Assembly (NCBI GenBank): GCA_022574655.1
Contig: JACZRQ010000003.1
Location: forward strand, 1 to 60,055
Direction of reading: 5' to 3'
DNA length: 60,055 bases
From: Chloroflexota bacterium
GTDB taxonomy: Bacteria; Chloroflexota; Dehalococcoidia; SM23-28-2; RBG-16-64-32
Below the pieces are notes generated by a model that saw only the letters and a program-made list of their open reading frames with translations, was not told where the DNA came from and ran no database searches. This document shows, piece by piece, positions 10,266 to 57,918 of this stretch (positions within the stretch are counted from its first letter, which is position 1; each line of letters opens with the position of its first letter). The position numbers and the translations under genes are program-made.

Positions 10266-10907
10266 ATGCAGAGCCACGAGCCCCCAGAGGCTTACCTGAT
10301 TCCGATCGAGGATGGACGAGAAGGCCCGAAGCGCCGCCTGAAGGTTTCGACAATCATCGGACGCGCTCCCGAGTGCGACGTTGCCCTCGGCAGCGCTCGC
10401 GTTTCGAGGCGGCACGCTGAGGTCTTCTGGGACGGCGAGAGGTTTCTCGTTAAAGATCTCGACAGCCTCAACGGGACCAGTCTCGGAGGATCGCATATCA
10501 GGAACGAGGTGCCGCTTACCTCGGGAGATACGATTGAGCTTGCTGATTGTCGACTTCGGTTCGAGCTGGCCGTAGGTAGCCAGACCGAGGTGTTCTTCGT
10601 GGAGGCGTCGGGCCTATCTGTCAACGTCGCTACCCACCAGGTGAGGGTGAACGGGCTGCCAGTAAAGCTAACACCCAAGGAGTTTCTGTTGGTAGCGTTG
10701 CTGCATGCACGCTCGCCTGACGTCGTCTCTTACGAAGAGATCGCAATCTCGGTTTGGCCTGAGTTGGAAGGTCAGGTTCACGAAGACAACGTCACCCAGC
10801 TAGTGGTAAGGCTCCGTCGAGAACTCAACGTTTACTCCACCGGTCTGATCGTGAACGTCAGAGGTTTTGGCTACCGGCTCGATGATACTTCGGGCGAATC
10901 AGCCTAG
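10266..10907 (+). CDS. FHA domain + OmpR/PhoB-type winged-helix transcription regulator
   Basis: FHA motifs IGRAPECD, VSRRHA, DLDSLNGT; C-terminal LTPKEFLLVALL...VWP...VVRLRREL...VRGFGYRL. Confidence 0.88.
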   Translation: MQSHEPPEAYLIPIEDGREGPKRRLKVSTIIGRAPECDVALGSARVSRRHAEVFWDGERFLVKDLDSLNGTSLGGSHIRNEVPLTSGDTIELADCRLRFELAVGSQTEVFFVEASGLSVNVATHQVRVNGLPVKLTPKEFLLVALLHARSPDVVSYEEIAISVWPELEGQVHEDNVTQLVVRLRRELNVYSTGLIVNVRGFGYRLDDTSGESA

Positions 10908-11008
10908 CCTACCATCATTCAATTGTCAGCCAGCTGTAAGTGTTTCTGGCTAGTCCTGTGGTTACGATGAGAGGGAGAAGGCGTCTATTCGGTTGAGGAA
11001 AGGAGCGG

Positions 11009-11815: not shown

Positions 11816-11935
11816 CGCGCCTCCCCAACATCGATTCATAGTGTAGACTGGAGCCGCCCCGCGTAGCCTGCGAGCTTTGACGCACTTACCGCTATACTAG
11901 AGCGAGCCGATTCAAGTCATCGGAGCGATCTTTTT

Positions 11936-13504: not shown

Positions 13505-13617
13505 GCAGAGGGCCTGGCGGTACCTCGTCATAGCGCGCTCGCCATGCTTGCAGTAGCATGATGGCCTGAACTTATGGCACAGGTTCTCTGCCCGCAATCG
13601 AAGTATCTCCTTGGTGG

Positions 13618-16386
13618 ATGTCGATGCCCGCGATAGTCGAAATCCGCTACGGTAGACAGACCCGGGAATTTTCCCTTGCAGAGGATCGTGCAACTACTAT
13701 CGGCAGAGCCGTCGAGAACGATATCGTTTTCGACGATTCGCTTGTATCTCGCCGCCACGCGCGGATCGATTTGAAGGCCGGCGCATACTTCATCACCGAT
13801 CTCGGTAGCGCGAACGGAACCCGTGTCGCCAATCGGGAAATTGCCCCGCGCGAACCGCAAGCGCTCGCCGATGGAGATCAGATCGAGATAGGCGGATTTC
13901 ACCTAACGTATCGCTCATCCGGCCGCGGTCCGGGCGCGACGCAAGTGGCTCAGGCCGCGCCTGTGGGCGAGGCCTTCACGTTCGTCGTACAGCTCCAGCC
14001 CAGGCTCGTTGTAACGACTTCCGAATCGACGCGAGAATTTCCGCTCAGGGGCGATAGGCTCGTCTTGGGTCGAAGCCCTGAGAACGAAATCGTCATTGAT
14101 GCCTCAGGCATCTCCCGTCAACATGCGGAACTGACTCAGTCATCCGGGAGATGGACCATCACGGATCTGAGCAGTACCAACGGCCTGACCTTTCACGGAG
14201 AGCGTATCGCCACAAGAGTGTTAAGCGACGGTGACGTGATCTGGGTTGCAGACTCGGTTTCCCTCACCTTCCGCGTGGCGCCAGACCTCGGCCAGGAGGA
14301 GCCTGCGTCGCAGAGCCTCGACCTCACGGGGCGGCGCGAGATCACCATCGGGCGCAATCCACACGCTGACGTTACCGTGTCCCACCCCACGGTCTCTAGG
14401 ATGCATGCCCGCCTTGCCATCCGTGATGGACGATACGTCGTAGAGGACCTTGCATCGAGCAATGGCACGTTTGTCAACGGCGAACCGGTGATGCCGGGTG
14501 CGCCCCGCCGTCTCGATCCCGGCGACTCGATCCGCATAGGCCCGGTGAAGTTCAACTTCTCCGAAGAGGCGCTCCAGCAAGTTGATGAGTCCAAGGATCT
14601 GCGTCTCGATGCCCTTCACCTGAATCAACCCGTCGCCAAGGGCGTCAACCTGCTGCAGGATATCTCGCTGTCCATTAACCCGCGCGAATTCGTCGCGGTC
14701 GTCGGTGTAAGCGGCGCCGGGAAGTCGACGCTTCTCGATTCGTTGAACGGATTTCGGCCGGCTCGACGCGGGGCCGTCCTCATCAACGGCACCGACCTCT
14801 ATAAAAACTTCGATGCATATCGGGCTGACCTGGGGTACGTCCCTCAGGATGACATAATCCACAAGGAGCTTCCCGTGGAAGCGGCACTAGACTACTCCGC
14901 CCGGCTTCGCCTCCCATCGGATACGACTAGGGATGAGCGGCGAGAGCGTGTCAGGGAGGTCATGGCCACCCTCGGTCTCACAGAGCGCAGTCATATGCCG
15001 ATCGCGCGCTTGAGCGGTGGACAGCGTAAGCGGGTTTCGATCGGCGTTGAACTGCTCACGAAGCCCGGCCTCTTCTATCTCGACGAGGCCACCTCCGGTC
15101 TCGATCCCGGCACCGAGAGCCAGATGATGCGGCTGCTGCGGAAACTGGCTGATGACGGTCACACAATCCTTCTCGTCACGCACGCCACAAAGAACGTCAT
15201 GCTTTGCGATCAAGTGATCTTCCTCGCCGCTGGTGGAAACCTGGCGTTCTTCGGGCCGCCGGACGAGGCGCTGAAACACTTCGAGATCAATGACTTCGAT
15301 GAGATTTACGAGAAGCTTGAGGATGAACTGAGTCCGGAGGAATGGGCGGAACGCTATCGCCAGTCCGACGCCTACCGGCGCTTCGTCGCCGAGCGTCTGA
15401 ACAACCACTACGGCGAACGGGGATCGGTCGCTTCGGCGCCGCCAGTCGCGCCTCGTGCCGCAGCCGGGCCAGCGAAGCGCCCCGAGAGCGCGCCTCGGAA
15501 AGTCTCAGCGCTGCGGCAGTTTTGGATCCTTTCGGCACGATACCTGGAGATCATCCGGCGTGACAGAACGAACCTCGCTCTGATGTTCCTGATCGCGCCT
15601 ATTCTCGGCACCATAGACCTGCTTGCATGGGAGCGTAACGTTCTCGATCCCCTTGAAGGCGACGTCACGTCGACGATGACGATGCTGTTCATGGCGGCTT
15701 TGATCCCGTTTCTGGTCGGAGCGATGACTTCAGTACGGGAAATCGTCAAGGAATCGCCGGTGTATCACCGAGAGCGCACCGTGACCCTAAAGATCGCGCC
15801 ATACCTGTTATCCAAGATTTGGGTCGGGTTTCTGTTCGCCCTCTACCATGCTGCGGCATTCTTCGCCCTGAAGATGCTCGCCGTCGACTTCTCACAATCC
15901 AGCACTGCAGACCTGGCCCAGCTGTACGGCACGCTCGCTTTCGCCACGATGTCCGGGGTCATGTGGGGACTGCTGATATCGACTGTTGTTCCGCGGGAAG
16001 AGCAGGCCATGGTGCTCGTCATCGGAATCGTCGTCGTACAGATGGTCTTCTCCGGAGGGCTGCTTGCCTTGAGCGATCTGGGCGTAGCGGGAGACGTGCT
16101 CGGCTCGATCACAAGCACTAAATGGGTCTTCCAGGCGCTCGTAGCGTCGGCCCAGGTGATGCAAGGCGAGTGCTTTGAGGCGACTTTGGAGACCTGCCAG
16201 CTACCGGGATTGCTCGCCTTTCAAGATGATCCGGGCACGCAGCGCGCTCTGGTCGACCCCATACTTGAGAAGTTCGGCGGGGTTTTCGGCGAAAGCGTTC
16301 GCAAAACCTGGATCGCCCTGGGTTCGATCATCGGCGGTGTCTTCGTCATCCTGCTTTTCCTTCAGAAGCGCAAAGACGTCGTCTAG
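13618..16386 (+). CDS. Triple-FHA ABC transporter (FHA-FHA-FHA-ATPase-ABC2 permease; Rv1747-like)
   Basis: Three GR...S..H...NG FHA motifs; Walker A GVSGAGKS, LSGGQRKR, LDEATSGLD, VTH; several C-terminal TM helices. Confidence 0.92.
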   Translation: MSMPAIVEIRYGRQTREFSLAEDRATTIGRAVENDIVFDDSLVSRRHARIDLKAGAYFITDLGSANGTRVANREIAPREPQALADGDQIEIGGFHLTYRSSGRGPGATQVAQAAPVGEAFTFVVQLQPRLVVTTSESTREFPLRGDRLVLGRSPENEIVIDASGISRQHAELTQSSGRWTITDLSSTNGLTFHGERIATRVLSDGDVIWVADSVSLTFRVAPDLGQEEPASQSLDLTGRREITIGRNPHADVTVSHPTVSRMHARLAIRDGRYVVEDLASSNGTFVNGEPVMPGAPRRLDPGDSIRIGPVKFNFSEEALQQVDESKDLRLDALHLNQPVAKGVNLLQDISLSINPREFVAVVGVSGAGKSTLLDSLNGFRPARRGAVLINGTDLYKNFDAYRADLGYVPQDDIIHKELPVEAALDYSARLRLPSDTTRDERRERVREVMATLGLTERSHMPIARLSGGQRKRVSIGVELLTKPGLFYLDEATSGLDPGTESQMMRLLRKLADDGHTILLVTHATKNVMLCDQVIFLAAGGNLAFFGPPDEALKHFEINDFDEIYEKLEDELSPEEWAERYRQSDAYRRFVAERLNNHYGERGSVASAPPVAPRAAAGPAKRPESAPRKVSALRQFWILSARYLEIIRRDRTNLALMFLIAPILGTIDLLAWERNVLDPLEGDVTSTMTMLFMAALIPFLVGAMTSVREIVKESPVYHRERTVTLKIAPYLLSKIWVGFLFALYHAAAFFALKMLAVDFSQSSTADLAQLYGTLAFATMSGVMWGLLISTVVPREEQAMVLVIGIVVVQMVFSGGLLALSDLGVAGDVLGSITSTKWVFQALVASAQVMQGECFEATLETCQLPGLLAFQDDPGTQRALVDPILEKFGGVFGESVRKTWIALGSIIGGVFVILLFLQKRKDVV

Positions 16387-32224: not shown

Positions 32225-32330
32225 CGTTTGACCTCACATTCTCGTAATGAACATTAGCCCGCCAAACCCGAACGCGATAGTGCGGCGATGGCGCGGCTAT
32301 TGTCCACAGTGGGAGAATAACGTAGTTTTG

Positions 32331-32939
32331 ATGTCCACCAGCGCGATAGTCCTCGCAGGCGGAAAGGGCCGCCGACTCGGTGTTAAGAAGCACTTGCTCG
32401 AGATCGGCGGTCGTTCTCTGTTGGAGATAGTCGTCGCCCGGGTTTCCGTTGTTTCCGGCGACGTGATCGTAGTGGCATCGCCCGCCGATACGATCAGCAT
32501 CCGGTTTCGCGGGATAAAGGTCGTTTCGGACGTCGTGCCGGGGAGAGGCCCGCTTTCCGGCCTTCACGCTGGGCTGCGTGTCGCTAAGTTCGATCGAGCG
32601 CTGCTGGTCGGGTGTGACATGCCCTTCTTGAGCACGGAACTACTGCACCACCTGGTCGAAACGGCCACGGATTCGGACGCAGTCGTCCCCCAGATCGCCA
32701 ATGATCTGGAACCCCTGCTCGCGGTCTACTCGCGAGCGTGCCTACCCATAGTTGAGGTCTTGCTCAACCGAGAGGACGCGAGTATGAGGGATCTCTTGGA
32801 CGACGTTCGGGTCCATCTCGTGCCGGAAGACGAGGTGCGTCAGTTCGATCCGGAAGGTCGGAGCTGGTTCAACGTCAACACACCAAGCGATGCTGATACG
32901 GCGCGTGCCCTTTGGGAGGAACTCGAGGGCGCTGATTAG
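32331..32939 (+). CDS. mobA: Molybdenum cofactor guanylyltransferase
   Basis: IVLAGGKGRRLG..K, GPLSGL, GCDMPF, EPLLAVY, FNVNTP; ATG 32331. Confidence 0.88.
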   Translation: MSTSAIVLAGGKGRRLGVKKHLLEIGGRSLLEIVVARVSVVSGDVIVVASPADTISIRFRGIKVVSDVVPGRGPLSGLHAGLRVAKFDRALLVGCDMPFLSTELLHHLVETATDSDAVVPQIANDLEPLLAVYSRACLPIVEVLLNREDASMRDLLDDVRVHLVPEDEVRQFDPEGRSWFNVNTPSDADTARALWEELEGAD

Positions 32940-32988: not shown

Positions 32989-35748
32989 ATGCTGGACAAG
33001 TACAGTGAAAAGCGGGATTTCGAGCGGACTCCGGAGCCGGCCTCCGGCGACGACTCGGTCGGCACGGGACCCCTGACCTTCGTCATCCAGAAGCACGACG
33101 CGACGCGCCTACACTACGATTTTCGCCTCGAGATCGATGGCGTTCTCAAGTCGTGGCCAATTCCTAAGGGGCCTTCGCTGGACCCAAGCGACAAGCGGCT
33201 CGCCGTCATGGTGGAGGATCACCCGATGGACTACGCCACCTTCGAGGGCGTTATCCCTAAAGGTGAGTACGGCGCCGGCGAAGTAATCGTCTGGGACGCT
33301 GGCACCTACTCACCCGATGATCACGGGCGGCTTTCCTTCCACGATCGCGGTGAGGCGAGTCAGCGTATGCGAGAGGCTCTCGAAAATGGCAAGCTTTCGG
33401 TCTTTCTGCGCGGTCAGAAACTGAAAGGCTCGTGGACTCTCGTCAAGACCAGCCGCGGCGAAAATGAATGGCTGCTGATCAAGCACAAAGATCGATTCGT
33501 CGACACGCGGGACGTCACCGAGGAAGAACACTCCGTCCTGTCCCAGCTCAGTCTCGACGACATCCGCGCCGGTCATCTACCACAACGGCGAAGTCGGCTC
33601 GGTGTCAAGCCTCAGGAACTAACGGGTGCGAAGAAGGCGCGGATTCCAAAGTCGGTCAAGCCAATGCTGGCTACGCTCACAGACAAGCCGTTCTCGTCTG
33701 ACGCTTGGCTCTTCGAACCCAAGCTCGATGGCGTTCGAGTCGTTGCCTTCCTCGACGGAAACAGCGTGCGGCTGCAGTCGCGACGGGGATTGGACGCCAC
33801 TAACAACTATCCGCTGGTCGCCGAGGACCTCAAGTCTCAGACGGAACCGCAGCTCGTACTGGATGGAGAGATTGTGGCCCACGATGAAGACGGCGTTCCC
33901 TCCTTCCAGCTCCTACAGCAGCGCATCAACCTCCAACGGGAAGCCGATATTCAACGAGCGGATTCTGAGATACCAGTTCTTTTCTACGTATTCGACCTTC
34001 TCTATGCCGGTGGGTACGACCTGCGTTCCGTCCCGCTGATCCAGCGCAAGTCACTGCTAAGTCAGATCGTGATTCCTAGCGATTGTGTGCAGATCGTTGA
34101 TCACTTCGAAGAGGACGGGAATTCGGCCTACAAGGCCGTCGTCGAACATGGACTGGAGGGGCTGATCGCAAAGAAGGTCGACAGCCTCTACGAGTCCGGA
34201 AAGCGCGCTAGCGGTTGGCTGAAGATCAAAAGTACTCTGGAGGACGAGTTCGTCGTCGGCGGCTACAGCCAGGGGCAAGGCGGCCGCGCCGGTACGTTCG
34301 GAGCGCTACTCGTAGGGCAGTACGATAAGGAAGGCAAACTTACGTATGCTGGCAAGGTCGGCACCGGATTCGACGACCGCACCTTGGAGGCGTTAAAGTC
34401 TCAGCTCGATGACCTGATGGCGGCCGTTAGTCCTTTTGCAGAAGACGCTAAGCCCGGCAGCTCTCCCTTCGGCCGACCGAAGAACACGGCTGTGACTTGG
34501 GTTCAGCCTGAGCTCGTCGCACGAGTGAAGTTCTCCCAGTGGACCGACGACAACCGCCTGCGAGCCCCTAGCTTTCTCGGCCTGCGCGAAGACAAGGATC
34601 CTAAGGAGGTGCAGCGGGCGCGTGTAGTTGCTGCGCCGGTTGCCGCCGTATCCACACCGCCGGCTCGCGCCCGACGGAAAGATGCGGCGGGCGTCTTATC
34701 GCAGTTGGAGCAGGGGCTTGACGAATTCACCTTGAAGGTCGGTCGACACAAAGTTCCGGTGACTAACCTGAGCAAGGAACTTTGGCCAGCCATGACGAAT
34801 CAGCGAGCGCTCACCAAACGCGATCTGCTTGTCTATTTGGCGCGTGTGTCGCCGTATCTACTCCCTCACCTGAAGGATCGGCCACTGACGCTCACACGCT
34901 ACCCGAACGGAATAACCGAAAAACACTTCTACCAGAAGCACTGGGAGGGGAAGCTACCCGCGTTCGTGGACACGGTGGCGCTGTACTCCAGCCACAATGA
35001 GGGCGACGGCGACTATCTGATGTGTAACAACCTGCCCACGTTGCTCTGGCTCGGTCAGCTTGCCGACATCGAGCTGCATACCTGGTATTCTCGCACCGAT
35101 CCCGAGCCAGACGGTCATCACTTGCCGACGGCGTTCAGTCACTCGGACGCGGCGATTCGCAGTTCGTTACTCAACTACCCGGACTTCATCGTATTTGACC
35201 TCGATCCGTACATCTATTCAGGTGAAGAAGCGAAGGGCGAGGAACCTGAACTGAACCGCCGGGCGTTCGCCAAGACTTGTGAAGTGGCGCTGTGGCTCAA
35301 AGAGATTCTCGATTCACTTTCGCTCTCATCGTTCGTCAAAACGACGGGACGCACCGGGCTGCACATCTACGTGCCCATCCTGCGCCAGCTGGATTACGGA
35401 GCAGTGCGATCGGCCTGCGAGACTATCGGTAAGTTTCTGGTCAGGGCACACCCGCGTGACATAACAATGGAGTGGGCCGTGAACAAGCGTACCGGGAAGG
35501 TGTTTTTTGACCACAACCAGAACGTGCGAGGAAAGACGCTGGCGTCTCTCTATTCGCCGCGTCCGAGTGCCAACGGTGGCGTCTCGATGCCGATCCATTG
35601 GGATGAGGTGGGCGAGGTCTACCCGACTGACTTCACAATCCTGACCGCGCCTGCACGGCTCGAACAAACGGGCGACCTCTGGGCAGATATCCTCAAGGAG
35701 AAACACGACCTCGAGAAGCTACTTGGGTCGATAGAGAGCGAGGATTAG
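32989..35748 (+). CDS. ligD: NHEJ DNA ligase D (phosphoesterase - ligase - primase/polymerase)
   Basis: PE: KRDFERTPEP, QKHDATRLHYDFRLE, VEDHP. LIG: EPKLDG, LDGEIV, EGLIAK, WLKIK. POL: RYPNG, FDLDP, KTTGRTGLH, DHNQN. Confidence 0.95.
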   Translation: MLDKYSEKRDFERTPEPASGDDSVGTGPLTFVIQKHDATRLHYDFRLEIDGVLKSWPIPKGPSLDPSDKRLAVMVEDHPMDYATFEGVIPKGEYGAGEVIVWDAGTYSPDDHGRLSFHDRGEASQRMREALENGKLSVFLRGQKLKGSWTLVKTSRGENEWLLIKHKDRFVDTRDVTEEEHSVLSQLSLDDIRAGHLPQRRSRLGVKPQELTGAKKARIPKSVKPMLATLTDKPFSSDAWLFEPKLDGVRVVAFLDGNSVRLQSRRGLDATNNYPLVAEDLKSQTEPQLVLDGEIVAHDEDGVPSFQLLQQRINLQREADIQRADSEIPVLFYVFDLLYAGGYDLRSVPLIQRKSLLSQIVIPSDCVQIVDHFEEDGNSAYKAVVEHGLEGLIAKKVDSLYESGKRASGWLKIKSTLEDEFVVGGYSQGQGGRAGTFGALLVGQYDKEGKLTYAGKVGTGFDDRTLEALKSQLDDLMAAVSPFAEDAKPGSSPFGRPKNTAVTWVQPELVARVKFSQWTDDNRLRAPSFLGLREDKDPKEVQRARVVAAPVAAVSTPPARARRKDAAGVLSQLEQGLDEFTLKVGRHKVPVTNLSKELWPAMTNQRALTKRDLLVYLARVSPYLLPHLKDRPLTLTRYPNGITEKHFYQKHWEGKLPAFVDTVALYSSHNEGDGDYLMCNNLPTLLWLGQLADIELHTWYSRTDPEPDGHHLPTAFSHSDAAIRSSLLNYPDFIVFDLDPYIYSGEEAKGEEPELNRRAFAKTCEVALWLKEILDSLSLSSFVKTTGRTGLHIYVPILRQLDYGAVRSACETIGKFLVRAHPRDITMEWAVNKRTGKVFFDHNQNVRGKTLASLYSPRPSANGGVSMPIHWDEVGEVYPTDFTILTAPARLEQTGDLWADILKEKHDLEKLLGSIESED

Positions 35749-35750
35749 TG

Positions 35751-36896
35751 TTAGTCGAGGCTCCTCAGCCGGCATGTCTCTGGCGGGACATCTGGACGGA
35801 GCGTGTGGAATACCGCAAATTGTAATCTGCCCTCATCGGTCCACTCAGAGTAGCGGACGCTTGCCGTCTGTTCGGGCCGGCACCAGAACACGAGCTTCTC
35901 AACTGCTGGTGGCGCATAGAATGGGCATTTCGGGTCGGTTAGCGACTCGAGGAGTTGGACATGAGCATCCTCTGTGGAGAACGCGCCTGACGCCTCTCCA
36001 ACGTAGTGAAGAGCACCATCCTCGTCGTAAAGTCCTAGGAGCACCGACTCGATTGGCCCCCGGTGCTTCGCCGCCCGTTTACCGCGCCACGGACCGCCGA
36101 ACGTAAATCCCGCCACCACGAACGTTCGTCTGTTGTAGGCCGGGATCTTCAGCCAGGAGCTGGACGCTCGCCCGGGCGAATAGTAACCATCGATCTCCTT
36201 GGCGATGATCCCACCGAGGCCGTGCTGTCGGGCCGCCTCAAAGAGTTCGGTGCCGTCCGTCTCCACGAACTCAGGCACCGTGATACGGTTGCTCGGCCGC
36301 ACGGCTCCAAGTAGCATCTCCTTGCGGCGGCCCAGCGTGTAGGACATCACGGACCTGCCGTCTTGGTAGAGGATATCGAACGCCTGAAACACCAGGTGAG
36401 GAGCAGTCGCGGCGATGTCAATCGCTAGTGGTTCACTCAGGAGTCTCGGCAACAAGGCGTTGAAGCTTGGCTTGTCTTCATCGTTCAGCGCCACGATGAC
36501 TCCGTCCAATGCTGTGCCACCGCGCGACACTCCCTGGTGAAGCCGACCGAGTTCGGGGAAACGATCGGTCACATCTCTGCCGAACGCGTCCTGGATTCGG
36601 ACAGACCTGCCCTCGACGAAGACGATCGCTCGCAGCCCCTCCCAGAGTAGCTCGAAGATATGTGACTCAGAATCGAACGGCTCAGAGGGTCCGGCAGCCA
36701 ACATCGGCGGCATCGTCTTTGGTAGAGTGGGCGGTCGTGAAGAAACCCGCATCGAGCCTTCGTCTGTCCTGGAGTTGCGAGCATTCATCTCGTGGATCGG
36801 TTCTCTTGTCGGATTAGACCGAGTGACATCTGCGGCGAGAGTATCGCTCGCTTCGCCTGAAGTCCAGTTATGCTGTCTAACCGAACTCTGACTCAC
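35751..36896 (-). CDS. ATP-dependent DNA ligase-like protein (adenylation + OB domains) with catalytic residues substituted; predicted pseudo-ligase
   Basis: Colinear with the LigD ligase domain (PMLA, AFDIL, RRKEML, Y.PG, LLGLYD, W.RPE, LRPD), but motif I is FELLWEGLR, III is LDGVIV, IV is GGIIAK and V is WLKIP. Start is GTG 36896 or ATG 36752. Confidence 0.8.
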   Translation of the reverse strand: MSQSSVRQHNWTSGEASDTLAADVTRSNPTREPIHEMNARNSRTDEGSMRVSSRPPTLPKTMPPMLAAGPSEPFDSESHIFELLWEGLRAIVFVEGRSVRIQDAFGRDVTDRFPELGRLHQGVSRGGTALDGVIVALNDEDKPSFNALLPRLLSEPLAIDIAATAPHLVFQAFDILYQDGRSVMSYTLGRRKEMLLGAVRPSNRITVPEFVETDGTELFEAARQHGLGGIIAKEIDGYYSPGRASSSWLKIPAYNRRTFVVAGFTFGGPWRGKRAAKHRGPIESVLLGLYDEDGALHYVGEASGAFSTEDAHVQLLESLTDPKCPFYAPPAVEKLVFWCRPEQTASVRYSEWTDEGRLQFAVFHTLRPDVPPETCRLRSLD

Positions 36897-37291
36897 CTGT
36901 AACCCTCGCCTAACCAGCCATCAATCGGGATAGTTTAGGATACCAATGCGCGCCCTGAGTCTCATTCGCCGCACCCCCGCGGAGCAGGACCAAGGTGCGC
37001 ATACTTCTCTATCCACCACACCTACTCGCGCCATCTAACGGCGCCGGTCCGTATGGATCGTTGCGCCTCGCCCCGAGATAACCTCAACGAGGTCGCGAGC
37101 GATGATATCGACGTGCGATCCGAACCGTCTGGATGACATCCGAGACCGTGACGTCGCCTCGCACTGGCGGGTATAAGATCGTCTTCTTTCGTGAGCGAAG
37201 CTCCTTTTGGAGTGGACTCCTCTGCTGCTAGTCGTAGAATGCATATGGCGTCCGACCCGAATCATCTCGACACTACCAAGGAGATTCCGTC

Positions 37292-38593
37292 TTGAAGGAA
37301 GACCCCGAGTCGAAGGAAAGCCTCACCGTAGTCGACAACCGTACCGGCCTGACATACGAGATACCTATCAAAGATCAGGCCGTCAACGCCTCCGACTTCA
37401 GGAAGATCAAAGAACACGAGAGAGACTTCGGGCTGCTCGTCTACGATCCGTCCTTCGTCAACACCGCATCATGCAGGAGTGCCATTACCTTCATCGACGG
37501 TGATCAAGGTGTCCTCGAATATCGTGGATACCCTATCGAGGAGCTCGCCAAGAAAAGCACTTTCTTGGAGACCGCTTATCTCCTGATCAAGGGAGAACTT
37601 CCCACCTCCGCCGAACTCGATGCGTGGACGAACGAAATCCGTACACACACCTATATGCACGAGAAGATGAAGATGTTCATGGAAGGCTTCCAGTACGATG
37701 CCCACCCGATGGGCATGCTGATCGCGACCGTCGCGGCGATGTCAACAATCTATCGCGACGCCAGGGACGTCACCGATCCAGAGTCGCGGGAAGCCAACAC
37801 CATTCGCCTCATCGCCAAGATGCCGACGGTGGCCGCGTTCACATACCGGCACAACCGTGGACTTCCGTACGTGTACCCGGACAACGATCTTACGTACGTC
37901 GGAAACTTCCTCTCGATGCTCTGGAAGATGGCGGAGCCCCAATACGCGCCCAGCCCAGTCCTCGAGCGAGCAATAGACGTGCTCTTCATTCTCCACGCTG
38001 ACCACGAACAGAACTGCAGCACAAACGCTATGCGCTCGGTGGGAAGTTCGGAGTCTGATCCGTACTCCTCAACCGCTGCGGCGGCCGCCGCCCTCTACGG
38101 TCCGCTGCACGGTGGAGCGAACGAGGCGGTCATCAACATGCTGAATGGCATTGGTGACAAGAAGAACATCCCGGACTTCGTTAGACGTGTTAAGGAAGGT
38201 GAGGGTCTCCTCTGGGGGTTTGGCCACCGCGTTTACAAGAACTACGATCCGCGAGCCGAGATTATCAAGCAGACGGCCGACGAAGTATTCGAGCTCACCG
38301 GGCCGAATCCCCTCCTCGAGATCGCTCTCGAACTCGAGCGCATCGCACTCGAGGATGACTACTTCATCGAGCGAAAGCTCTACCCCAACGTCGACTTCTA
38401 CTCCGGAATCATCTATCAGGCGCTTGGCTTCCCAGTCGATATGTTCCCGGCGCTCTTCGCGATTCCGCGTACGGCAGGTTGGCTGGCACAATGGAGGGAG
38501 ATGTTAGAGGACAAGGAGCGGAAGATCGCGAGGCCGCGACAGTTATTCGTCGGAGAGTCTCGGCGCCCGTACGTGCCAATGGATCAACGCTAA
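37292..38593 (+). CDS. gltA: Citrate synthase
   Basis: YRGYPIEEL, AHPM, LHADHEQNCST, GPLHGGANE, GFGHRVYKNYDPRA, YPNVDFYSG; TTG start after AAGGAG. Confidence 0.96.
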   Translation: MKEDPESKESLTVVDNRTGLTYEIPIKDQAVNASDFRKIKEHERDFGLLVYDPSFVNTASCRSAITFIDGDQGVLEYRGYPIEELAKKSTFLETAYLLIKGELPTSAELDAWTNEIRTHTYMHEKMKMFMEGFQYDAHPMGMLIATVAAMSTIYRDARDVTDPESREANTIRLIAKMPTVAAFTYRHNRGLPYVYPDNDLTYVGNFLSMLWKMAEPQYAPSPVLERAIDVLFILHADHEQNCSTNAMRSVGSSESDPYSSTAAAAAALYGPLHGGANEAVINMLNGIGDKKNIPDFVRRVKEGEGLLWGFGHRVYKNYDPRAEIIKQTADEVFELTGPNPLLEIALELERIALEDDYFIERKLYPNVDFYSGIIYQALGFPVDMFPALFAIPRTAGWLAQWREMLEDKERKIARPRQLFVGESRRPYVPMDQR

Positions 38594-50897: not shown

Positions 50898-51650
50898 CTA
50901 AAGCTCGAGACGGGCGTAAATACCCAGGTGGTCCGACGGGAAGAGGTCGGGATCATCCGCCGCGGGCTCGTCGAACGCCAATCCCGCGTCGAGTATGCGG
51001 AACTCCTCCGACACGTAAATGTAGTCCAGCGTCCCGTGCGGCGAATCATCGTAGGTGTTGACCGGCGTCGGCCAGGTCTTCTCGGGCTCTCCGCCGTGTA
51101 CTGCCTCGAAGGCAGACCGGAAGCGGCTCTTCATCATCGCGACCCCCGGTTCATTGATGTACGAGTTGAAGTCGCCCGCGATTACGGTCGGTAGCTTCCG
51201 CTCATCGCGGTCAAGCCACGCCAACAGATATTCGAGTTGCTGGAGGCGTTCCTGAACAGCCTCCGGCGGGTGGTGGAGGTGTGTGTTCACGAACGCGAAT
51301 CTCCCCGAATCCGTCTGGAAGATGATCCGCTGGGCCGTTCGGTCGTAACTCATCAGGTCCAGGATTTCGTGTTCAGCCACTTCGAGCCGAGACAACGTCC
51401 CGAGGCCGTGGACACTCGCGTACTTACCGGGGCTAGCGACATGTTTGATGCGGTAGTGTGGCCGCTCCTGCAGCCGTTTGTTGATCTGGCGGCTGATCCA
51501 CATCCCCTGATCGAGGTCGAGGTCCACTTCCTGAAATGCGATCGTGTCGGGGGCGAGCGCTTCTAGCTGGTCGATGACCAACGGCGCACGCCGTTCCCAT
51601 TCGCCCATCCGGTTGAACAGGTTGAGCGTTGCCAGCTTTATCTCGGTCAT
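50898..51650 (-). CDS. Endonuclease/exonuclease/phosphatase (EEP) family protein
   Basis: LATLNL, FQEVD, NTHL, AGDFN, LDYIY, PSDH; ATG overlaps the addA-like stop. Confidence 0.9.
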   Translation of the reverse strand: MTEIKLATLNLFNRMGEWERRAPLVIDQLEALAPDTIAFQEVDLDLDQGMWISRQINKRLQERPHYRIKHVASPGKYASVHGLGTLSRLEVAEHEILDLMSYDRTAQRIIFQTDSGRFAFVNTHLHHPPEAVQERLQQLEYLLAWLDRDERKLPTVIAGDFNSYINEPGVAMMKSRFRSAFEAVHGGEPEKTWPTPVNTYDDSPHGTLDYIYVSEEFRILDAGLAFDEPAADDPDLFPSDHLGIYARLEL

Positions 51651-54600
51651 AACCCCGCCTCCAGACGTTCCTTCGCCAAACGCGACAACTCCGCCGGTTC
51701 GCCGGGCGAGCGTTCGACATTCGGGCTGACGAATACGTAGTTTACGTTGGAGACCGTCAGTCTCGTCGCTGTCTCAATTCCCAACACATAGAGCCCCGCC
51801 TGTAGTCTGTACTGGTCGAGTCGCGCGTCGATCTCGCTCTCGTTCACCCGGTCCGTCTTCCAGTCCACGATCTCGATCCCGTCAGGACCCTCGATGAGTA
51901 AGTCAACGAACCCTTCGACGGTGGTCCCATCGATGTCCAAGCCGAATGGCACCTCTCTCAGCGCACGGGTGGCCCTCCGCGCTCTCTCAGCCGCCCGAGA
52001 ACGTAAGGCTCGCCGCACCAACGTTCCGACCTCGTCGGCGCGATCGGGGACTGCCTCCGCGACCGCTTCAGCCCTCGCGAACGCCTTGATCGTCTCTTCA
52101 TCCGCATCCCAGGGAACGCTCTGAATCGCGGCGTGGACGGCGCGTCCCAATCGTGTACCGCCGCGTCCTCGCGCCCACGGCTCGGAATCCTCCTCACGCG
52201 AATGTTCGATGAGAGCCGTTGCACTCGTGTACGTTCGTCGGCGCGATCGCTCGACTAGCGCAGCCCTCTCTTCTTTGAAATCGCTCGGTGATGCGGGAGG
52301 GTCTACTTTGAGTTGGTCTAGCGGACTCGCATCGAAGGTGAGGCTCGTTGCGGATGGCGTCAATTTCTGGGCCAGCTCTCGGGCGCCCGCATCAATCAAT
52401 CGCTCAGCGCCGGAGCTTCTCCGCGAACTCTTCCGGTGATACAGCGACACCACCAGATGGTCCCGGGCCCGAGTCGCGCCCACGTAGAGCAGGCGCGCGT
52501 ATTCCGCTTCTTCGTGCTTGCCCTCTTGCTCATTCAGGCGGTCCACTGGACCGAGCTCGAAGCGCGATCCGCGATACTTCGTGCCAATGCAGACAGCGGC
52601 TTCACCTTTCGCTCGATCGACTGCGTACGTGCTCGCCCGGTCGCGTGGATACCATGAGAGACCTGCCAGAAAAACAATCGGGAACTCCAGACCTTTGGCG
52701 CCGTGGATCGTCGTGATCCTGACGGCATCCTCATCATCATCAAGTGCCGCCGCCTCGTTGTCTAGGATCCTCCCCTCTGATCGGTTTTCCAACCAACGGA
52801 TGAAAGCGCGCAGGCTCATCGGTCCCGCCGCTTCGAACCTTCGCGCCTGATCGACTAGGAACCGCACTCGCCGGAAACTGTTCCGGTCGCCCGCATCCAG
52901 AATGCCGATCTCGACGATCCCCCGTTCCGAGGCAAACCTCTCTACGACTGATGCCAAGGAGCCGTCGTGACGCCCTTGATGATAATCGGCGAGTATCCGT
53001 AGCCCCTCTGCGACGGGTCCTTCGCGATCGTCGAGCCCACCTCCCAAGTAGTTGAACCTGCCACCGTCTGCGCGGAATCGCGCGAGGTCGAGGTCAGAGC
53101 ACGTGAAGGCAGGGCTGCGCAGGGCCGCCACAATCGCGACCTCGTCGGCCGGGTCGTCTATCGCCGTAAGGCAGTTCGTCAGATCGCGCACCTCCTGCGT
53201 GCGGTAAACGAGGCTGCCACCCTCGACTCGGTACGGTACGCCCGCCGACAACAACGTACGCTCCAACGCGGGAAGTATGCCTCGAGTCGGAATCAACACG
53301 GCAATATCGGAGAGTCGCGCGCTCCGCACGGACCCGTCTCGATCAACGACCTCCCAGCCCTCCTTCAGTACCGCCAGGCACTGCGCCGTCAACGCCTGTG
53401 CCTCGACCTCGCGTACCTCTCGAGCGTTTCCGGGCGACTCGTCTCCCAGCCAGGCGATTCCCGGCCCCGACAGTTCTTGCGTCCGAAAAGGCTCAATGTT
53501 GGCGTATGCAGGTTGCACTTCCGGGTTAGTTCCCTCACCGATCATCTTTCCGAATACCGGATTCAGCCACTCGAGCAGCGCTGGCCGCGATCGGCGGTTT
53601 AGCGCAAGCTGCGGGAACCTGCTACCCTCGCGCCCGAACTGTTCACGTGCCTGTGAATAGACCGCCATGTCGGCCCGCCTGAAGCGATAGATCGATTGCT
53701 TTGGGTCTCCTACGACGAACAACCTGCCCGGCTCAATCTTGCCCGAATCCGGGTCCGTAGCGAACGACAGCGCGATCTCTACCTGCAGCGGGTCCGTGTC
53801 CTGAAACTCGTCGATCAACATAGCCTCGTAACGGCTGCGGAGGCTGCGAACTGCCTGCGCGTCGTCACGCAGGAGGTCACGGACGCGCACGATCAAGTCG
53901 TCGAATGTGAGCGTGCCACGCCTCCCGCGCTCGCGAGCATCCTCTGCGACGAAGCGGACGATCATCGGGATCACGTCAGCGAGGGCAGAGGCCCTCGCAT
54001 CCCTAAGCGTCTGCTTGAGCTCCTCACAGATCGCGCTACACCCGTGGATGACCGCGTTTCTTACAGCTCCGCCACCCCACGCCGCCGCCGAGCTGACCTT
54101 CCATCTCGTCTCCAGCGTCACGGCCCCAGCCGCGAGCGCTGCCTCACGGTCGTCGAGTTGACGATCGATGCTTTCGACGAGAGCGAGGAGCGCTTCTGCC
54201 TTGAGCCGGAGGCGATCATCCGGCTCCGCACGATCAAGGCCCAGCTCTTCAAGGCTTCGTCTCATGGCGGAAACATCCGGCCACCTTGGCTCAGGCGCTT
54301 CAGGCAGATCACGTTCGAGCCGGGGCGCCAGCTCCTGCCGCGAACTCAACTCCGATGCCAGCGCCTCGATCTCCCAGGTCGCTAACCCCAGCGCCAGCGC
54401 GCGATCGATCGCCTTCGTCGAGTCCAGATCAGCGGCCTCGGCCTCAAGGAAGAATCGCCATCGCTCCTGGAAACGCCTTTCCGCCAGCACTTCGTCCTGT
54501 ACGTCGAACGAAGGATCGATGCGAGCCTCCGCCGCATGTCGGTGAAGGAGAGCCTGGCAGAACGAGTGGATCGTGGAGATCTGCGCACGGTCCAACGAGG

Positions 54601-54892
54601 AAATCGCCGTCTGGATGACACTTTCCTTATCGGGCGTCTCGAGGAGTTGGGACTCGAGTCCGGTCCTGACTCGCTCTCGTAACTCCGCTGCCGCTCGATC
54701 CGTAAACGTTATCGCGACGATCCGTTCGATCGACCGGCCGCTCAACACGAGGGACACAACGCGATCGACGAGAGCGCTCGTCTTGCCCGTTCCCGCCCCA
54801 GCTTGGACGAATAACGTTTCGTCGAGCGCCTCGCGGATCGTTTCACGCGCCTCCCTGTCACGAATGTGGGGCTCTATGCTGTGCGGCGTCAT
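51647..54892 (-). CDS. addA: AddA-like UvrD helicase + PD-(D/E)XK nuclease
   Basis: AGAGTGKT, ITFTDRAA, STIHSFC, IDEFQDT, VGDPKQSIYRFR, TIHGAKGLEF, LYVGATRA; nuclease GFVDLL...VDWKT. Confidence 0.88.
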   Translation of the reverse strand: MTPHSIEPHIRDREARETIREALDETLFVQAGAGTGKTSALVDRVVSLVLSGRSIERIVAITFTDRAAAELRERVRTGLESQLLETPDKESVIQTAISSLDRAQISTIHSFCQALLHRHAAEARIDPSFDVQDEVLAERRFQERWRFFLEAEAADLDSTKAIDRALALGLATWEIEALASELSSRQELAPRLERDLPEAPEPRWPDVSAMRRSLEELGLDRAEPDDRLRLKAEALLALVESIDRQLDDREAALAAGAVTLETRWKVSSAAAWGGGAVRNAVIHGCSAICEELKQTLRDARASALADVIPMIVRFVAEDARERGRRGTLTFDDLIVRVRDLLRDDAQAVRSLRSRYEAMLIDEFQDTDPLQVEIALSFATDPDSGKIEPGRLFVVGDPKQSIYRFRRADMAVYSQAREQFGREGSRFPQLALNRRSRPALLEWLNPVFGKMIGEGTNPEVQPAYANIEPFRTQELSGPGIAWLGDESPGNAREVREVEAQALTAQCLAVLKEGWEVVDRDGSVRSARLSDIAVLIPTRGILPALERTLLSAGVPYRVEGGSLVYRTQEVRDLTNCLTAIDDPADEVAIVAALRSPAFTCSDLDLARFRADGGRFNYLGGGLDDREGPVAEGLRILADYHQGRHDGSLASVVERFASERGIVEIGILDAGDRNSFRRVRFLVDQARRFEAAGPMSLRAFIRWLENRSEGRILDNEAAALDDDEDAVRITTIHGAKGLEFPIVFLAGLSWYPRDRASTYAVDRAKGEAAVCIGTKYRGSRFELGPVDRLNEQEGKHEEAEYARLLYVGATRARDHLVVSLYHRKSSRRSSGAERLIDAGARELAQKLTPSATSLTFDASPLDQLKVDPPASPSDFKEERAALVERSRRRTYTSATALIEHSREEDSEPWARGRGGTRLGRAVHAAIQSVPWDADEETIKAFARAEAVAEAVPDRADEVGTLVRRALRSRAAERARRATRALREVPFGLDIDGTTVEGFVDLLIEGPDGIEIVDWKTDRVNESEIDARLDQYRLQAGLYVLGIETATRLTVSNVNYVFVSPNVERSPGEPAELSRLAKERLEAGL

Positions 54893-57800
54893 TCCTCCGT
54901 TTCTCCAGACGCGACACCGGCTACCTTAGACCACGGTGCGATGCTCGGATCATCGGACTTTGCGGCTAGCTCATGGTCGCGGCGGCGCGAGCAGATGCGA
55001 TCGTACTCGCAGAACATGCAGTTTTCGAAGTTACCTCGGAACTCGTTCTCCTCGCTCGGCACGGCGGGGAACACACCGGACCGGATCCCCTGAAAGATCG
55101 CATCCAGCGTTTGATTGAACCGCGTCTCCTTCGCTGGCGTCGGATCATACGGAATCTCTTTGAAAGCTCCTTTGCGAGTGATGAACCAGTAGATCGCTTG
55201 GGCTCGCTCTGTCCCGGCAACAGCCGTTAGGTACGTCGGAAGCTGCAACTTCGTTCCACCCACGAGCGGGTCCTCGTCTGTAATCTTGTCGAAGCTGAAT
55301 GAGCTGCCGGTCTTGTAGTCGATGATCCATGCCGCTCGCCCGTCCTCCGTCGTATCAATCCTGTCGACGTAACCTCGGAGCTTGATCCCCGCCACGTCAG
55401 TCTCTGGGATTGGCGCCTCGAACGCGGTTGGTACAGCGCCCGTCCTTCGACGGAAGGCCGTATCCGCCTGAAGGAACATCGCCAGATCGGCTCGGATTGT
55501 CCGTGCCTCGTGCTCCGCATAGATGTCCAGCCCGGTCAGGCCACGCTCCTCCGCTTCTAGAAGAACGTCATCTAGTACTCGCATAAGCGTTTGGAGGTCG
55601 TCCTTGGTCCATGCCTCGTTCACGGTAGGGCGGTCCTTCCCCTTCTGTATGCGGAAGAAGCGGTCTAGGACCTTGTGAATCAGGCTGCCTCGGGTCGCCG
55701 GGTCCATCATCTCACGCTCTTCGGGCTCTTCTACGACGTTCAAGCGCAAGAGGGATCGGCAGAAGTATTTGTAGCCACACACCGCGTAGTTCTCCAGCGA
55801 CGTCGGAGAGACCGTTCGTTGCAAGTCCAACCAAGAATCATCCCGTAGCGCCGAAACGTTGCCGTCCCATTCGGTGAATGCCGGACTGCGACGATGTCTG
55901 AGCATCTCAACCGACCGCATCCTTGGGTGGCCGGCGCTGACATCCCTATCACTCTGTCTCAGCCGGACCGCGTCGCGCAGCAAACCCTCGGCTAGGTCGA
56001 CCTGAGCACCTCTGAGAGCGCCGGTCATCGGTGACTGAACCGATCGCACCTGTCCCGAGCTGGCTTCGTTCCGCCGCAACATCGAGGCGGTCACTCGCTC
56101 ATCGCCGGTTTCGTTCTGGACTGCGGCGACCATGAGATACGAAGGGTAGTACTCGCGCGTACCGCCCGGCTCGAAGCGAGGGCAAGACCAGGTGAGCGAG
56201 CCGTTGCCGGCGCTGGCTATCGCCCGGCGCGCCATCATATCGGAGCGCTCGATTCGGGTGTTGACGTCCTCGATCTGAGGGAACCGGTCTTTGAGACTGC
56301 GCCACACGCTGTCATCAAGGAGACTGTCGACACCCGGCCCCGCGGGCAGCGCTCCCTCAAATGCTCCGCAGAGCGCCACGTGCTTGAACTGTAGCCCTGC
56401 CGCCATTCTGTGATCGGCGAGCAGGATTCCGGAGCCGAGTGATGCCGGACGTCGGTGAGCGACTCGTAGGTTCGCGTCCAGAGCCTCGGCGAACGTCGCC
56501 AGCGTAAACTTTCCGCCGATCGCACCAACCGTCCCCAGCTGCTCGATCTCGTCGTGCACTTCGTCGAAGGCTTCCGCAGATGGGTCGACATAGCCATCGA
56601 CTGCCGCCTTGAACGCGACGATGAAACTGGCTGCCGATTGTGGTTCGCTCAGCGGTTCCAGTTGCCGCGCTAGCTGCTCGACCACCGCTTGCAGAGCCTC
56701 CGCTTGATCCCCATCCAGCCTGGCGGCGATGGCTCTCTGCTCGTAACCCTCGCTCTCGTGTCTATCAGCAGACGCCGCACGATCACGCACCAGCGCACGC
56801 AGCCGCGCCGTCCACTGACCTGATCCTTTCGAGATGCCGGCCTCGCGGGAAATTCTGTCCCAGTCGGGTGTTCGCGGCGGAGTCCCCCCACCCGCTGTTG
56901 GGACAGTTGTCTTCAGTTTTGCGACGCTCAGGAAGTCCATGACCGCCGTTCGCGCAAACTCCTGACCGGGCAGCCTCGCCAACATCAGCGCTGCGCGACC
57001 GGTGCGGCTTTCGATCAAGGGTAGGCCTGGCAGAGGTACAGTCGGTATATCGGCGGACTCAAACACCTCGCGAAGAAGTCCGGGATAGCTGTCGGCCGCC
57101 CCGTGAAATACCGCCGCCTCATCGATGCCGCAACCAGCGTCGAGTGCATTCACTACATCCCGCACGATCTCGCGAACTTCGCTCGCCGGGTCCGGCGCGA
57201 GAACGAAGCGCACTTCGGGTTTGCCTGCCGGTTCTTCGAACTCCGCACACGAAGGCGCTACATCACGCAGCACTTCGAGAAGCGCGATACCAGCCGCGGT
57301 CAGCGGCCCCGGCGGTGCGACGTAGAGGGCGCCAAGGTCGTGTAGCGCTCCCGATGATCCAGTTCGAATCGCCGCAGTCGCCGCGTCCATGAGATCCTCG
57401 TCGTCGTAGAACGCTGACGTCTGTTCCCGGAACAAGCTGTACAGGCGGAGGATCTCTCGGAACATGCCGCTGGTGTTGACAATCTCCCTACCGGTGGTGA
57501 TGCCGCCTCTGCGCAGGCGTCGGAATATCTGGCGGAGTGCTCTGGCGTATCCGGGCAGGTCACCAATATCCTTGAGCCTCTCGCGCGATTCACGCCCAAC
57601 CTGTTCCGCAACGTAGTCTCCGATTGGCCGCGCCAGCGGGCTGCGGTCGTCAGCCGCCAGCAGGCCTGCACCCAGCAACTCCGCAATTCTAGGTAACGTC
57701 TCGAACCGCACACCGGCGAACGATTCAATTTCGGCGAGCCTCCGCCTCATCTGCAGACCTGCAGCATGGGACGGAACAAGAACGGTTACGGGCGCGAGCG

Positions 57801-57918
57801 GATCCCCCTTTCGGGCGGATGCGATCTCTCCGAGAGTGGAAGTAGCGTCAGGCATACCTGTGGGCGAGGGGGCTCCCCCTGTCGGCTCAAGGATATGGCC
57901 ACTAGAATACGTCGTCAA
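54889..57918 (-). CDS. addB: AddB-like inactive helicase + Fe-S PD-(D/E)XK nuclease
   Basis: VLVPS, SPTSLENYAVCGYKYF, GSLIHKVL, GYVDRID, IDYKTG, LQLPTY, CMFCEYDRIC (4-Cys Fe-S staple); ATGA overlap with addA. Confidence 0.82.
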   Translation of the reverse strand: MTTYSSGHILEPTGGAPSPTGMPDATSTLGEIASARKGDPLAPVTVLVPSHAAGLQMRRRLAEIESFAGVRFETLPRIAELLGAGLLAADDRSPLARPIGDYVAEQVGRESRERLKDIGDLPGYARALRQIFRRLRRGGITTGREIVNTSGMFREILRLYSLFREQTSAFYDDEDLMDAATAAIRTGSSGALHDLGALYVAPPGPLTAAGIALLEVLRDVAPSCAEFEEPAGKPEVRFVLAPDPASEVREIVRDVVNALDAGCGIDEAAVFHGAADSYPGLLREVFESADIPTVPLPGLPLIESRTGRAALMLARLPGQEFARTAVMDFLSVAKLKTTVPTAGGGTPPRTPDWDRISREAGISKGSGQWTARLRALVRDRAASADRHESEGYEQRAIAARLDGDQAEALQAVVEQLARQLEPLSEPQSAASFIVAFKAAVDGYVDPSAEAFDEVHDEIEQLGTVGAIGGKFTLATFAEALDANLRVAHRRPASLGSGILLADHRMAAGLQFKHVALCGAFEGALPAGPGVDSLLDDSVWRSLKDRFPQIEDVNTRIERSDMMARRAIASAGNGSLTWSCPRFEPGGTREYYPSYLMVAAVQNETGDERVTASMLRRNEASSGQVRSVQSPMTGALRGAQVDLAEGLLRDAVRLRQSDRDVSAGHPRMRSVEMLRHRRSPAFTEWDGNVSALRDDSWLDLQRTVSPTSLENYAVCGYKYFCRSLLRLNVVEEPEEREMMDPATRGSLIHKVLDRFFRIQKGKDRPTVNEAWTKDDLQTLMRVLDDVLLEAEERGLTGLDIYAEHEARTIRADLAMFLQADTAFRRRTGAVPTAFEAPIPETDVAGIKLRGYVDRIDTTEDGRAAWIIDYKTGSSFSFDKITDEDPLVGGTKLQLPTYLTAVAGTERAQAIYWFITRKGAFKEIPYDPTPAKETRFNQTLDAIFQGIRSGVFPAVPSEENEFRGNFENCMFCEYDRICSRRRDHELAAKSDDPSIAPWSKVAGVASGETEE

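Follow-up and report, generated by a model that had tools for sequence, protein, structure and literature searches.

A lysine-less ligase-like protein encoded convergently to LigD in Dehalococcoidia, a candidate non-catalytic accessory of Ku-LigD end joining

The ligase-like gene and the convergent ligD

The stretch of DNA analyzed here, referred to as the window, comprises 60,055 nucleotides of a Chloroflexota bacterium of the class Dehalococcoidia (assembly GCA_022574655.1, contig JACZRQ010000003.1, positions 1 to 60,055), and it encodes on its minus strand a DNA ligase-like protein that lacks the lysine (Lys) to which AMP is transferred in active ligases. The longest open reading frame (ORF) of this gene (35751..36896, minus strand) has 381 codons from a GTG start to the stop TAA at 35751-35753. 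The form found in the database begins at the ATG at 36788 and has 345 residues, and the conserved N-terminal stretch 'LPxxxxPMLA' lies after the ATG at 36752, from which a protein of 333 residues would be made. The true start is uncertain, the ATG at 36752 being the likeliest because the homology of the ORF to its closest relative begins at about residue 46. Convergent to this gene lies ligD (32989..35748, plus strand), encoding a three-domain LigD of 919 residues with phosphoesterase, ligase and primase-polymerase domains (Pfam), the ligase domain having an intact EPKLDG motif. The stop TAG of ligD (35746-35748) and the stop of the ligase-like gene are separated by a spacer of 2 bases (35749..35750). 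In a promoter and terminator scan of 35400-37400 the counts were at the level of shuffled sequence and a terminator between the convergent genes was not found. The gap between the two stops (35746-35753) is too small for a terminator. Transcription of either gene would continue antisense into its neighbor.

Residues 58-376 of the ligase-like ORF align in BLASTP with residues 219-542 of the adjacent LigD, i.e., with its entire ligase and OB part, at 34% identity over 331 residues (E 5e-53). Pfam assigns a nucleotidyltransferase (adenylation) domain (PF01068; 36144..36677, minus strand, residues 74-251; 70.3 bits, cut-off 26.2) and an OB-fold domain (PF04679; 35790..36062, minus strand, residues 279-369; 57.8 bits, cut-off 27.5), and the match to the ligase family is far beyond chance. 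The protein consists of these two ligase domains only; neither a phosphoesterase nor a primase-polymerase domain was detected with Pfam. With the NCBIfam model TIGR02779 (NHEJ_ligase_lig; NHEJ, non-homologous end joining) it scores 176.2 bits, under the cut-off of 227.75, and the adjacent LigD scores 298.1; with the NCBIfam models of multidomain LigD (TIGR02776 / PRK05972) the ligase-like protein lies far under every cut-off.

The AlphaFold2 model of the ligase-like protein, computed from an alignment of 119 sequences, has a mean predicted local distance difference test score (pLDDT) of 91.8 and a predicted template modelling score (pTM) of 0.89. Its top Foldseek matches are structures of the ligase domain of Mycobacterium tuberculosis LigD (6nhx, 6nhz and 1vs0; for 6nhx E 3.8e-28, template modelling scores 0.66/0.72), followed by archaeal and human ATP-dependent ligases. 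The same three entries also lead by sequence in phmmer, with about 31% identity and E values of 5e-41 to 2e-40. A nucleotidyltransferase domain followed by an OB domain, the arrangement of LigD-type ligases, is thus found with Pfam, in the AlphaFold2 model and in the structural matches.

Catalytic residues, conservation and selection

The motif names and the catalytic roles of the motif residues are established for covalent nucleotidyltransferases, and the Lys of KxDG together with the carboxylates of motifs III and IV is essential in ATP-dependent ligases. The motif positions were read off alignments to LigD and to homologues, and all of them lie on the minus strand. Motif I, EPKLDG in LigD, reads ELLWEG (36636..36653, codons 82-87; gag cta ctc tgg gag ggg), and Leu84 (CTC) occupies the position of the AMP-accepting Lys. 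Motif Ia is DAFG instead of SRRG (36579..36590, codons 103-106), the consensus of the Lys-less clade described below being D-R-[YFW]-G. In motif III, LDGVIV instead of LDGEIV (36492..36509, codons 130-135), the Asp is kept and the Glu is replaced by Val133; in motif IV, GGIIAKE instead of EGLIAKK (36195..36215, codons 228-234), the Glu is replaced by Gly228 and Lys233 is kept. Motif V is WLKIP instead of WLKIK (36141..36155, codons 248-252), with K250 kept and the second Lys replaced by Pro252, and in motif VI, LRPDV (35787..35801, codons 366-370), Arg and Asp are kept and the Lys is replaced by Val370. An earlier sequence-only reading of the window had described the end-to-end match to the ligase and OB region of LigD, the replacements in motifs I, Ia, III, IV and V, the codons of motif I and the 2-base distance of the stops; all of this was found as described, and the loss of the motif VI Lys is added to it.

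Compared with the ligase domain of M. tuberculosis LigD (Rv0938; 1vs0, 6nhx, 6nhz), the protein shares the nucleotidyltransferase and OB fold and a motif scaffold of motif I Glu/Gly/Arg, motif III Asp, motif IIIa Phe-Asp, motif IV Lys and motif VI Arg-x-Asp. It differs in standing alone and in the replacement of the nucleophile Lys, the Glu of motifs III and IV, the second Lys of motif V and the Lys of motif VI. The motif I Lys, the motif III and IV Glu, the Lys-x-Lys of motif V, the motif VI Lys and a TIGR02779 score above the cut-off are thus the features of a LigD-type ligase that the protein does not have. The lysyl-AMP intermediate would not form, so that ligation would not be started, and the gene very probably encodes a pseudo-ligase devoid of ligase activity.

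A word-indexed search revealed 132 relatives, of which the best 120 are nearly all 310-400 residues long and, where named, belong to Dehalococcoidia or Chloroflexota; a HMMER scan of cluster representatives added 150 further relatives. Over 267 aligned domains the nucleophile column holds Lys in 150, another residue, mostly Leu or Ile, in 111 (the window protein being included twice, in two lengths) and a gap in 6. A FastTree phylogeny of 264 rows places the window protein inside an 87-tip clade (support 96) without any Lys in this column, whose members are 43-85% identical to it. This clade is nested in a 107-tip clade (support 99), in which 13 of the other 20 tips carry Lys, and all 114 Lys-less tips sit in one 145-tip clade containing just one protein of at least 450 residues. 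The Lys-less proteins are almost all short, apart from one protein of 525 residues, P0114. This protein, very GC-rich in its DNA and encoded on a contig of 2928 bases, is 32% identical to the window protein, has the motif I EFAWEG and lies outside the Chloroflexota clade; its C-terminal segment is annotated by the source as PF06580 (histidine-kinase-like), so that it may represent a fusion of a dead ligase with a signaling module.

Residue frequencies were compared between the 87-tip Lys-less clade and 95 canonical sequences. The nucleophile column holds L in 70%, I in 20%, C in 4%, A in 4% and Y in 1% of the clade and K in 0%, against 99% Lys in canonical sequences. The motif VI Lys is present in 0% versus 56%, the first Lys of motif V in 13% versus 97%, the motif III Glu in 41% versus 98% and the motif IV Glu in 51% versus 93%. 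The motif I Glu and Gly, the Arg five residues on, the motif III Asp, the Phe-Asp of motif IIIa, the motif IV Lys and the Arg and Asp of motif VI are retained in 97-100% of the clade, and about 40 columns, several of them Arg, are conserved in the clade alone. Judged by these frequencies, the triphosphate and metal site is dismantled and the adenosine pocket and the core are retained.

The retained pocket bears on the alternative that the protein is still an enzyme able to bind adenine nucleotide, with pre-adenylated DNA as its substrate in step-3 sealing or in the handling of the 5'-adenylated DNA (AppDNA) left by abortive ligation, or that it uses another nucleophile. The residues of the adenosine pocket and fold that are kept at 97-100% (motif I Glu and Arg, motif IIIa Phe, motif IV Lys) are consistent with this, as are two His conserved specifically in the clade (H79 and H225). 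A Lys-less LigD domain can hold ATP: the chains of 6nhx and 6nhz, which we take to be engineered Lys-to-Met mutants, show Met in the Lys column of the printed alignment, and the entry titles describe complexes with ATP. Furthermore, the Lys-to-Ala variant of the Chlorella virus ligase seals pre-adenylated nicks. However, the metal- and phosphate-binding residues of motifs III to VI are not conserved in the clade, and the window protein lacks the motif III and IV Glu, the motif VI Lys and the second motif V Lys, with only the first motif V Lys (K250) retained. The residues replacing the nucleophile (L, I, C, A, Y) are hydrophobic, and the clade has no conserved Lys of its own. With the Glu and the Lys of motifs V and VI gone and not conserved in the clade, a residual role on pre-adenylated DNA is unlikely, and we regard the enzymatic alternative as very improbable.

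Selection was analyzed by the ratio of non-synonymous to synonymous substitution rates (dN/dS). The closest comparison is with the metagenome contig L035, which encodes a protein of 83% identity in the same order of citrate synthase, ligase-like gene and ligD: over 336 codons dN/dS is 0.149 (NG86) and 0.121 (YN00), at a dS of 0.63-0.72. The corresponding values are 0.04 (NG86) and 0.04 (YN00) for the LigD C-terminus and 0.06 (NG86) and 0.04 (YN00) for citrate synthase. For another 21 pairs taken from the clade the ratio ranges over 0.13-0.32, and the adjacent full LigD has 0.115-0.26 in the nine of these pairs in which both genes were available, so the dead ligase is about as constrained as the live one. 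Among the population variants listed for contigs of three other DNA runs, which are the best-supported differences, 101 further differences existing besides, 10/10 in the ligase-like ORF are synonymous, including CTC>CTG in codon 84, the codon of the Leu replacing the Lys; for LigD 25/29 of the listed differences are synonymous.

These data also bear on whether the gene is merely a paralogue decaying neutrally, or a sequencing or assembly artefact. The joint disappearance of several catalytic residues and the NCBIfam score under the cut-off (176 vs 227.75 bits) would fit such an origin. It is contradicted by a reading frame that is intact in the window and in every relative examined, by the dN/dS values of 0.12-0.32, by the uniformly synonymous listed variants and by the confident structure model. 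In addition, the Lys-less state is common to the 87-tip clade down to 43% identity, and near-identical DNA was found in contigs of runs from several studies, so that decay or artefact is hardly credible. The protein thus matches an enzyme family in sequence and fold and has lost the catalytic residues, and its inactive state is kept across species under purifying selection, as in pseudoenzymes. The sequence-only reading had argued for a selected non-catalytic protein of retained fold rather than random decay, and had proposed to examine the conservation of the Lys-less motif I, dN/dS, synteny with ligD and a structure model. The first was found without exception in the 87-tip clade, dN/dS is well below 1, the model has LigD ligase domains as its best matches, and together with the synteny given below the clade conservation and low dN/dS bear its argument out. 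As far as its sequence tells, the protein belongs to a branch of the LigD-type ligases made up of pseudoenzymes.

Linkage to ligD and ku, and origin of the gene

In a class sample, 401 genomes of the class were searched with the ligase-like protein and the Pfam Ku domain, and standalone genes were classified at 30 + 40 loci. A ligase-like match (E <= 1e-10) was found in 152/401 genomes and Ku in 127/401. The gene is convergent to ligD in seven of the eight genomes of the window's clade (G000, G157, G286, G220, G299, G383, G359), the contig of the eighth, G105, ending at the locus. A scan of species representatives with the family alignment revealed 52 loci, 50 in metagenome-assembled genomes titled Dehalococcoidia or Chloroflexota and two in Bryobacteraceae with the canonical Lys. 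The Lys is missing at 29/52 loci, comprising 18 of the window's clade and 11 genes in ku operons. At 15/18 window-clade loci ligD, or its polymerase part at a contig end, lies convergent within about 400 bp, a neighborhood kept at 45-52% protein identity, and in 12 of these 15 ku follows beyond ligD on the strand of ligD. In the ku-operon genes ku is directly upstream in 11/11 loci. As the class sample and the species representatives overlap, these counts are not independent. The conserved genomic linkage with ku and ligD that characterizes NHEJ gene clusters is therefore found in the clade, with only ligD adjacent in the window.

The sequence-only reading had seen no ku gene in the window and had considered the protein as a possible Ku surrogate. 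A Ku domain is indeed absent from the 37 window ORFs scanned with Pfam, but the genome does encode Ku, on another contig of its own assembly (C90:20400-20936), 66-67% identical to the Ku of family relatives; this assembly is 77% complete and consists of 156 contigs. As Ku is present in the own genome and next to ligD in relatives, a role as Ku surrogate is unlikely, and this part of the earlier proposal was rejected. The same assembly contains, on contig C75 (locus L004, ~1300-1796), a fragment of a second standalone ligase-like gene that runs off the contig end and is interrupted by masked N; its motif I, EVKWGG, keeps the Lys and has Gly in place of Asp, and it carries the clade signature EPFDSPDHLFE, so that the assembly may hold three LigD-type ligase genes.

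The origin of the gene was analyzed with IQ-TREE (quick search, 86 rows, nucleophile column removed). Full-length LigD ligase domains, including that of the neighboring LigD, form one group and the standalone proteins another (Shimodaira-Hasegawa-like approximate likelihood ratio test, SH-aLRT, 87, then 98). The two neighbors in the window lie in different clades of the tree, and a recent duplication of the neighboring LigD ligase domain was rejected as the source of the gene. The window protein belongs to a 14-row clade (SH-aLRT 99), whose basal member (G123) bears the Lys and is encoded directly behind ku. Next come Lys-bearing EVKWDG genes that are already convergent to ligD (metagenome loci L036 and L039), and the remaining 11 rows are Lys-less and convergent to ligD wherever the contig allows. 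According to this placement, the gene goes back to a standalone ligase linked to ku, which was relocated next to ligD and lost its catalytic function afterwards. The nearest Lys-bearing relatives, and likely the ancestors, are the standalone NHEJ ligases downstream of ku in the class (G040, G061, G085, G387, G123), which resemble the window protein in length, domains and lineage. They keep the K, D, E, E and K-x-K residues lost in the window protein, and often no other ATP-dependent ligase match seems to be present in their genomes, whereas the window protein is accompanied by a full LigD.

The presence or absence of Lys requires at least eight changes of state on both trees, five (FastTree) or six (IQ-TREE) of which are forced by starred branches. 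Root and direction of these changes were not inferred from the trees, and canonical ligases on all sides carry Lys; on this phylogenetic evidence, the loss of Lys is recurrent within the class, with at least 6-8 changes of state. The motif ELMWGG marks a second, independent Lys-less clade (13 rows, support 100); in 12/13 class-sample genomes its gene follows ku immediately on the same strand, a count that includes the unpublished genome G244 (11/12 without it). Its sister group keeps the Lys and has Gly for the motif I Asp (ELKWGG). The loci of the ELMWGG/ELLWGG clade are L015-L033, L058 and L063 in class genomes and L117, L126, L127, L130, L132-L135, L139 and L143; here the motif I Asp is likewise Gly and a full LigD is located elsewhere in the genome. 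Further degenerate paralogues keep the Lys, namely EAKWGC/EAKWGG (L075, L077-L080, L083, L086) and EIKWEG with the motif IV Glu replaced by His (L064, L065, L067, L068, L070). They miss other catalytic residues (motif I Asp-Gly, motif IV Glu, motif V Lys), and their activity is doubtful. The window protein resembles these degenerate standalone paralogues (ELMWGG, ELKWGG, EAKWGC, EIKWEG...HG), many of which lie directly behind ku, in its damaged motifs; unlike it, they belong to separate clades that changed independently, and the arrangement convergent to ligD distinguishes the clade of the window protein.

Possible roles in Ku-LigD end joining

Our preferred reading, held with moderate confidence, is that the ligase-like protein is a selected non-catalytic accessory of Ku-LigD end joining with the ligase fold, its exact role being inferred. 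A standalone ligase encoded directly downstream of ku would have been the ancestor, and in the ancestor of the clade the gene would have come to lie convergent to the ku-ligD operon. The nucleophile Lys and the Lys residues holding the ATP phosphates would then have been lost, with the lining of the adenosine pocket and the core of the fold left in place. The protein would work as a non-enzymatic subunit of the Ku-LigD machinery: its ligase fold might occupy a broken end or a nick, or the ligase-docking site on Ku, and thereby hold or gate the repair complex, with the intact LigD doing the chemistry. Taken by themselves, participation in Ku-LigD repair is rather probable and a structural or holding role, as opposed to an inhibitory one, a tentative assignment; the protein would bind DNA, Ku or LigD with an effect on repair. 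A predicted complex between the protein and a dimer of Ku (score 0.01, mark 0.32) weighs neither way.

In eukaryotes a counterpart would be the structural role of catalytically inactive ligase IV. Passages of several reports describe that catalytically inactive ligase IV still has repair functions (PMC9638927; PMC3549972; PMC11754673; PMC3694833; PMC10858965), and there, as is proposed here for the window protein, a non-ligating ligase still supports end joining and another one seals. The inactive ligase IV forms were made in the laboratory, as engineered or point-mutated versions of one essential ligase that has BRCT/XRCC4 partners, whereas the window protein is a natural, separately encoded and selected bacterial paralogue known from sequence.

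Several observations weigh against this accessory role and bear on an alternative in which the protein has a function unrelated to end joining, e.g., as a nucleic-acid- or nucleotide-binding module in another process, with the adjacency to ligD being inherited gene order. Convergent genes are not co-transcribed, for which reason the synteny is weaker evidence than an operon would be. In the own assembly ku does not lie beside ligD; a gene for a MobA-like NTP transferase (32247-32936, plus strand) is found directly upstream of ligD, where relatives carry ku. Among the class-sample genomes with some Lys-less ligase-like gene, 22/31 have Ku and further ligase matches (those of G082 and G230 counted, not itemized), and 9/31 gave neither a Ku nor a second ligase match with these queries. 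Lys-less ligase-like proteins can therefore persist without Ku-LigD. These nine genomes are G320, G035, G066, G262, G125 and G336 (93-98% complete), G010 (92%), G236 (82%) and G249 (70%), and the ORFs at their loci (L060, L089, L073, L074, L076, L081, L082, L069 and L066) are intact. Also weighing against the accessory role, the motif Ia Arg is lost in the window protein's own subclade (DAFG) and kept in 74% of the remaining clade. The 87-tip clade has a median isoelectric point (pI) of 5.97 and a net charge of -4 and the window protein a pI of 5.8 and a charge of -7, compared with pI 8.3 and +2 for Lys-bearing standalone relatives and pI 8.7 and +2 for LigD ligase domains. Most of this shift is due to the loss of four active-site Lys; such acidity, calculated from the sequences, does not favor strong DNA binding and would fit an unrelated function, as would the putative fusion of the distant Lys-less P0114 to a histidine-kinase-like segment. 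However, the Ku-less orphan genes fall in other subclades than that of the window, the ligD/ku neighborhood is kept at 15 of the 18 window-clade loci, and a separate Lys-less clade sits in the ku operon in both genome sets. Around ten Lys-less or degenerate orphans (36 flanking ORFs, Pfam) a common partner gene was not found, the flanking genes having only unrelated metabolic or housekeeping functions. A function outside end joining is thus, in our estimation, quite unlikely.

Another possibility is that the protein acts within the same pathway as a negative regulator, i.e., that the dead ligase competes with LigD for the docking site on Ku or for 5'-phosphate ends and thereby restrains error-prone joining. 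The evidence for the accessory role, namely the kept fold, the lost chemistry, the selection and the synteny, speaks for this as well, and the long retention beside ligD fits both, so that inhibition and assistance are not distinguished by it. The Ku C-terminus was reported to contact the LigD ligase domain at D522, K579 and L580 (PMC13717202). K579 and L580 map to an RRK-x-L stretch that is conserved in the clade (R190, R191, L195), a weak hint that the Ku-docking surface may persist. However, the positions were assigned manually in a single pairwise alignment, and the third contact residue, D522, is not among the conserved ones. Overall, a negative regulator appears unlikely.

The proposed accessory of Ku-LigD end joining allows two extensions. 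It is conceivable, if doubtful, that Chloroflexota end joining has a dedicated, separately encoded dead ligase subunit, which evolved repeatedly out of the ligase linked to ku each time catalysis passed to a full LigD. In a bolder variant the retained adenosine pocket would sense ATP/AMP or abortive 5'-adenylated DNA and hand the ends to LigD.

Further genes of the window were recorded besides. PADLOC matched no defense family for the ligase-like protein or the gene upstream of ligD. At 50901-57918 (minus strand) lies an AddA/AddB-like helicase-nuclease pair (UvrD helicase and PD-(D/E)XK; 1081 and 1009 residues), followed by a gene of the endonuclease/exonuclease/phosphatase family; this set resembles a recombinational break-repair module and is 15 kb away from the NHEJ genes. 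A signaling cluster at 7265-16383 encodes two Ser/Thr protein kinases, a PP2C phosphatase, an FHA and winged-helix regulator and a protein of 922 residues in which three FHA domains are fused to an ABC transporter (ATPase and ABC-2 membrane part).

A natural Lys-less NHEJ ligase paralogue was not found described in the literature searched, in which subscription journals are thinly covered, so that its absence from the literature is unproven. The matching passages of a LigD review (PMC8656161) and of a paper on NHEJ evolution (PMC7719229) do not mention one. The sources name such proteins 'bifunctional NHEJ protein LigD', 'ATP-dependent DNA ligase' or 'non-homologous end-joining DNA ligase'; with ligase names on dead proteins, gene-count surveys would overstate the capacity for ligation, and a check for the motif I Lys would separate the live from the dead class in annotation. 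Bacterial NHEJ is taught as a two-protein system of Ku and LigD, and to our knowledge a non-catalytic role of an NHEJ ligase is so far known only from engineered ligase IV mutants. If the accessory role holds true, a third, conserved component, ligase-shaped and chemically dead, would change the two-protein view of end joining in many environmental bacteria that form a large group. The structural role of the end-joining ligase, debated for ligase IV, would thereby gain a natural model in which it can be separated. If, beyond this, such dead subunits did evolve repeatedly, holding of ends, synapsis or gating by the NHEJ ligase would be an ancient function that can be split off as a protein of its own.

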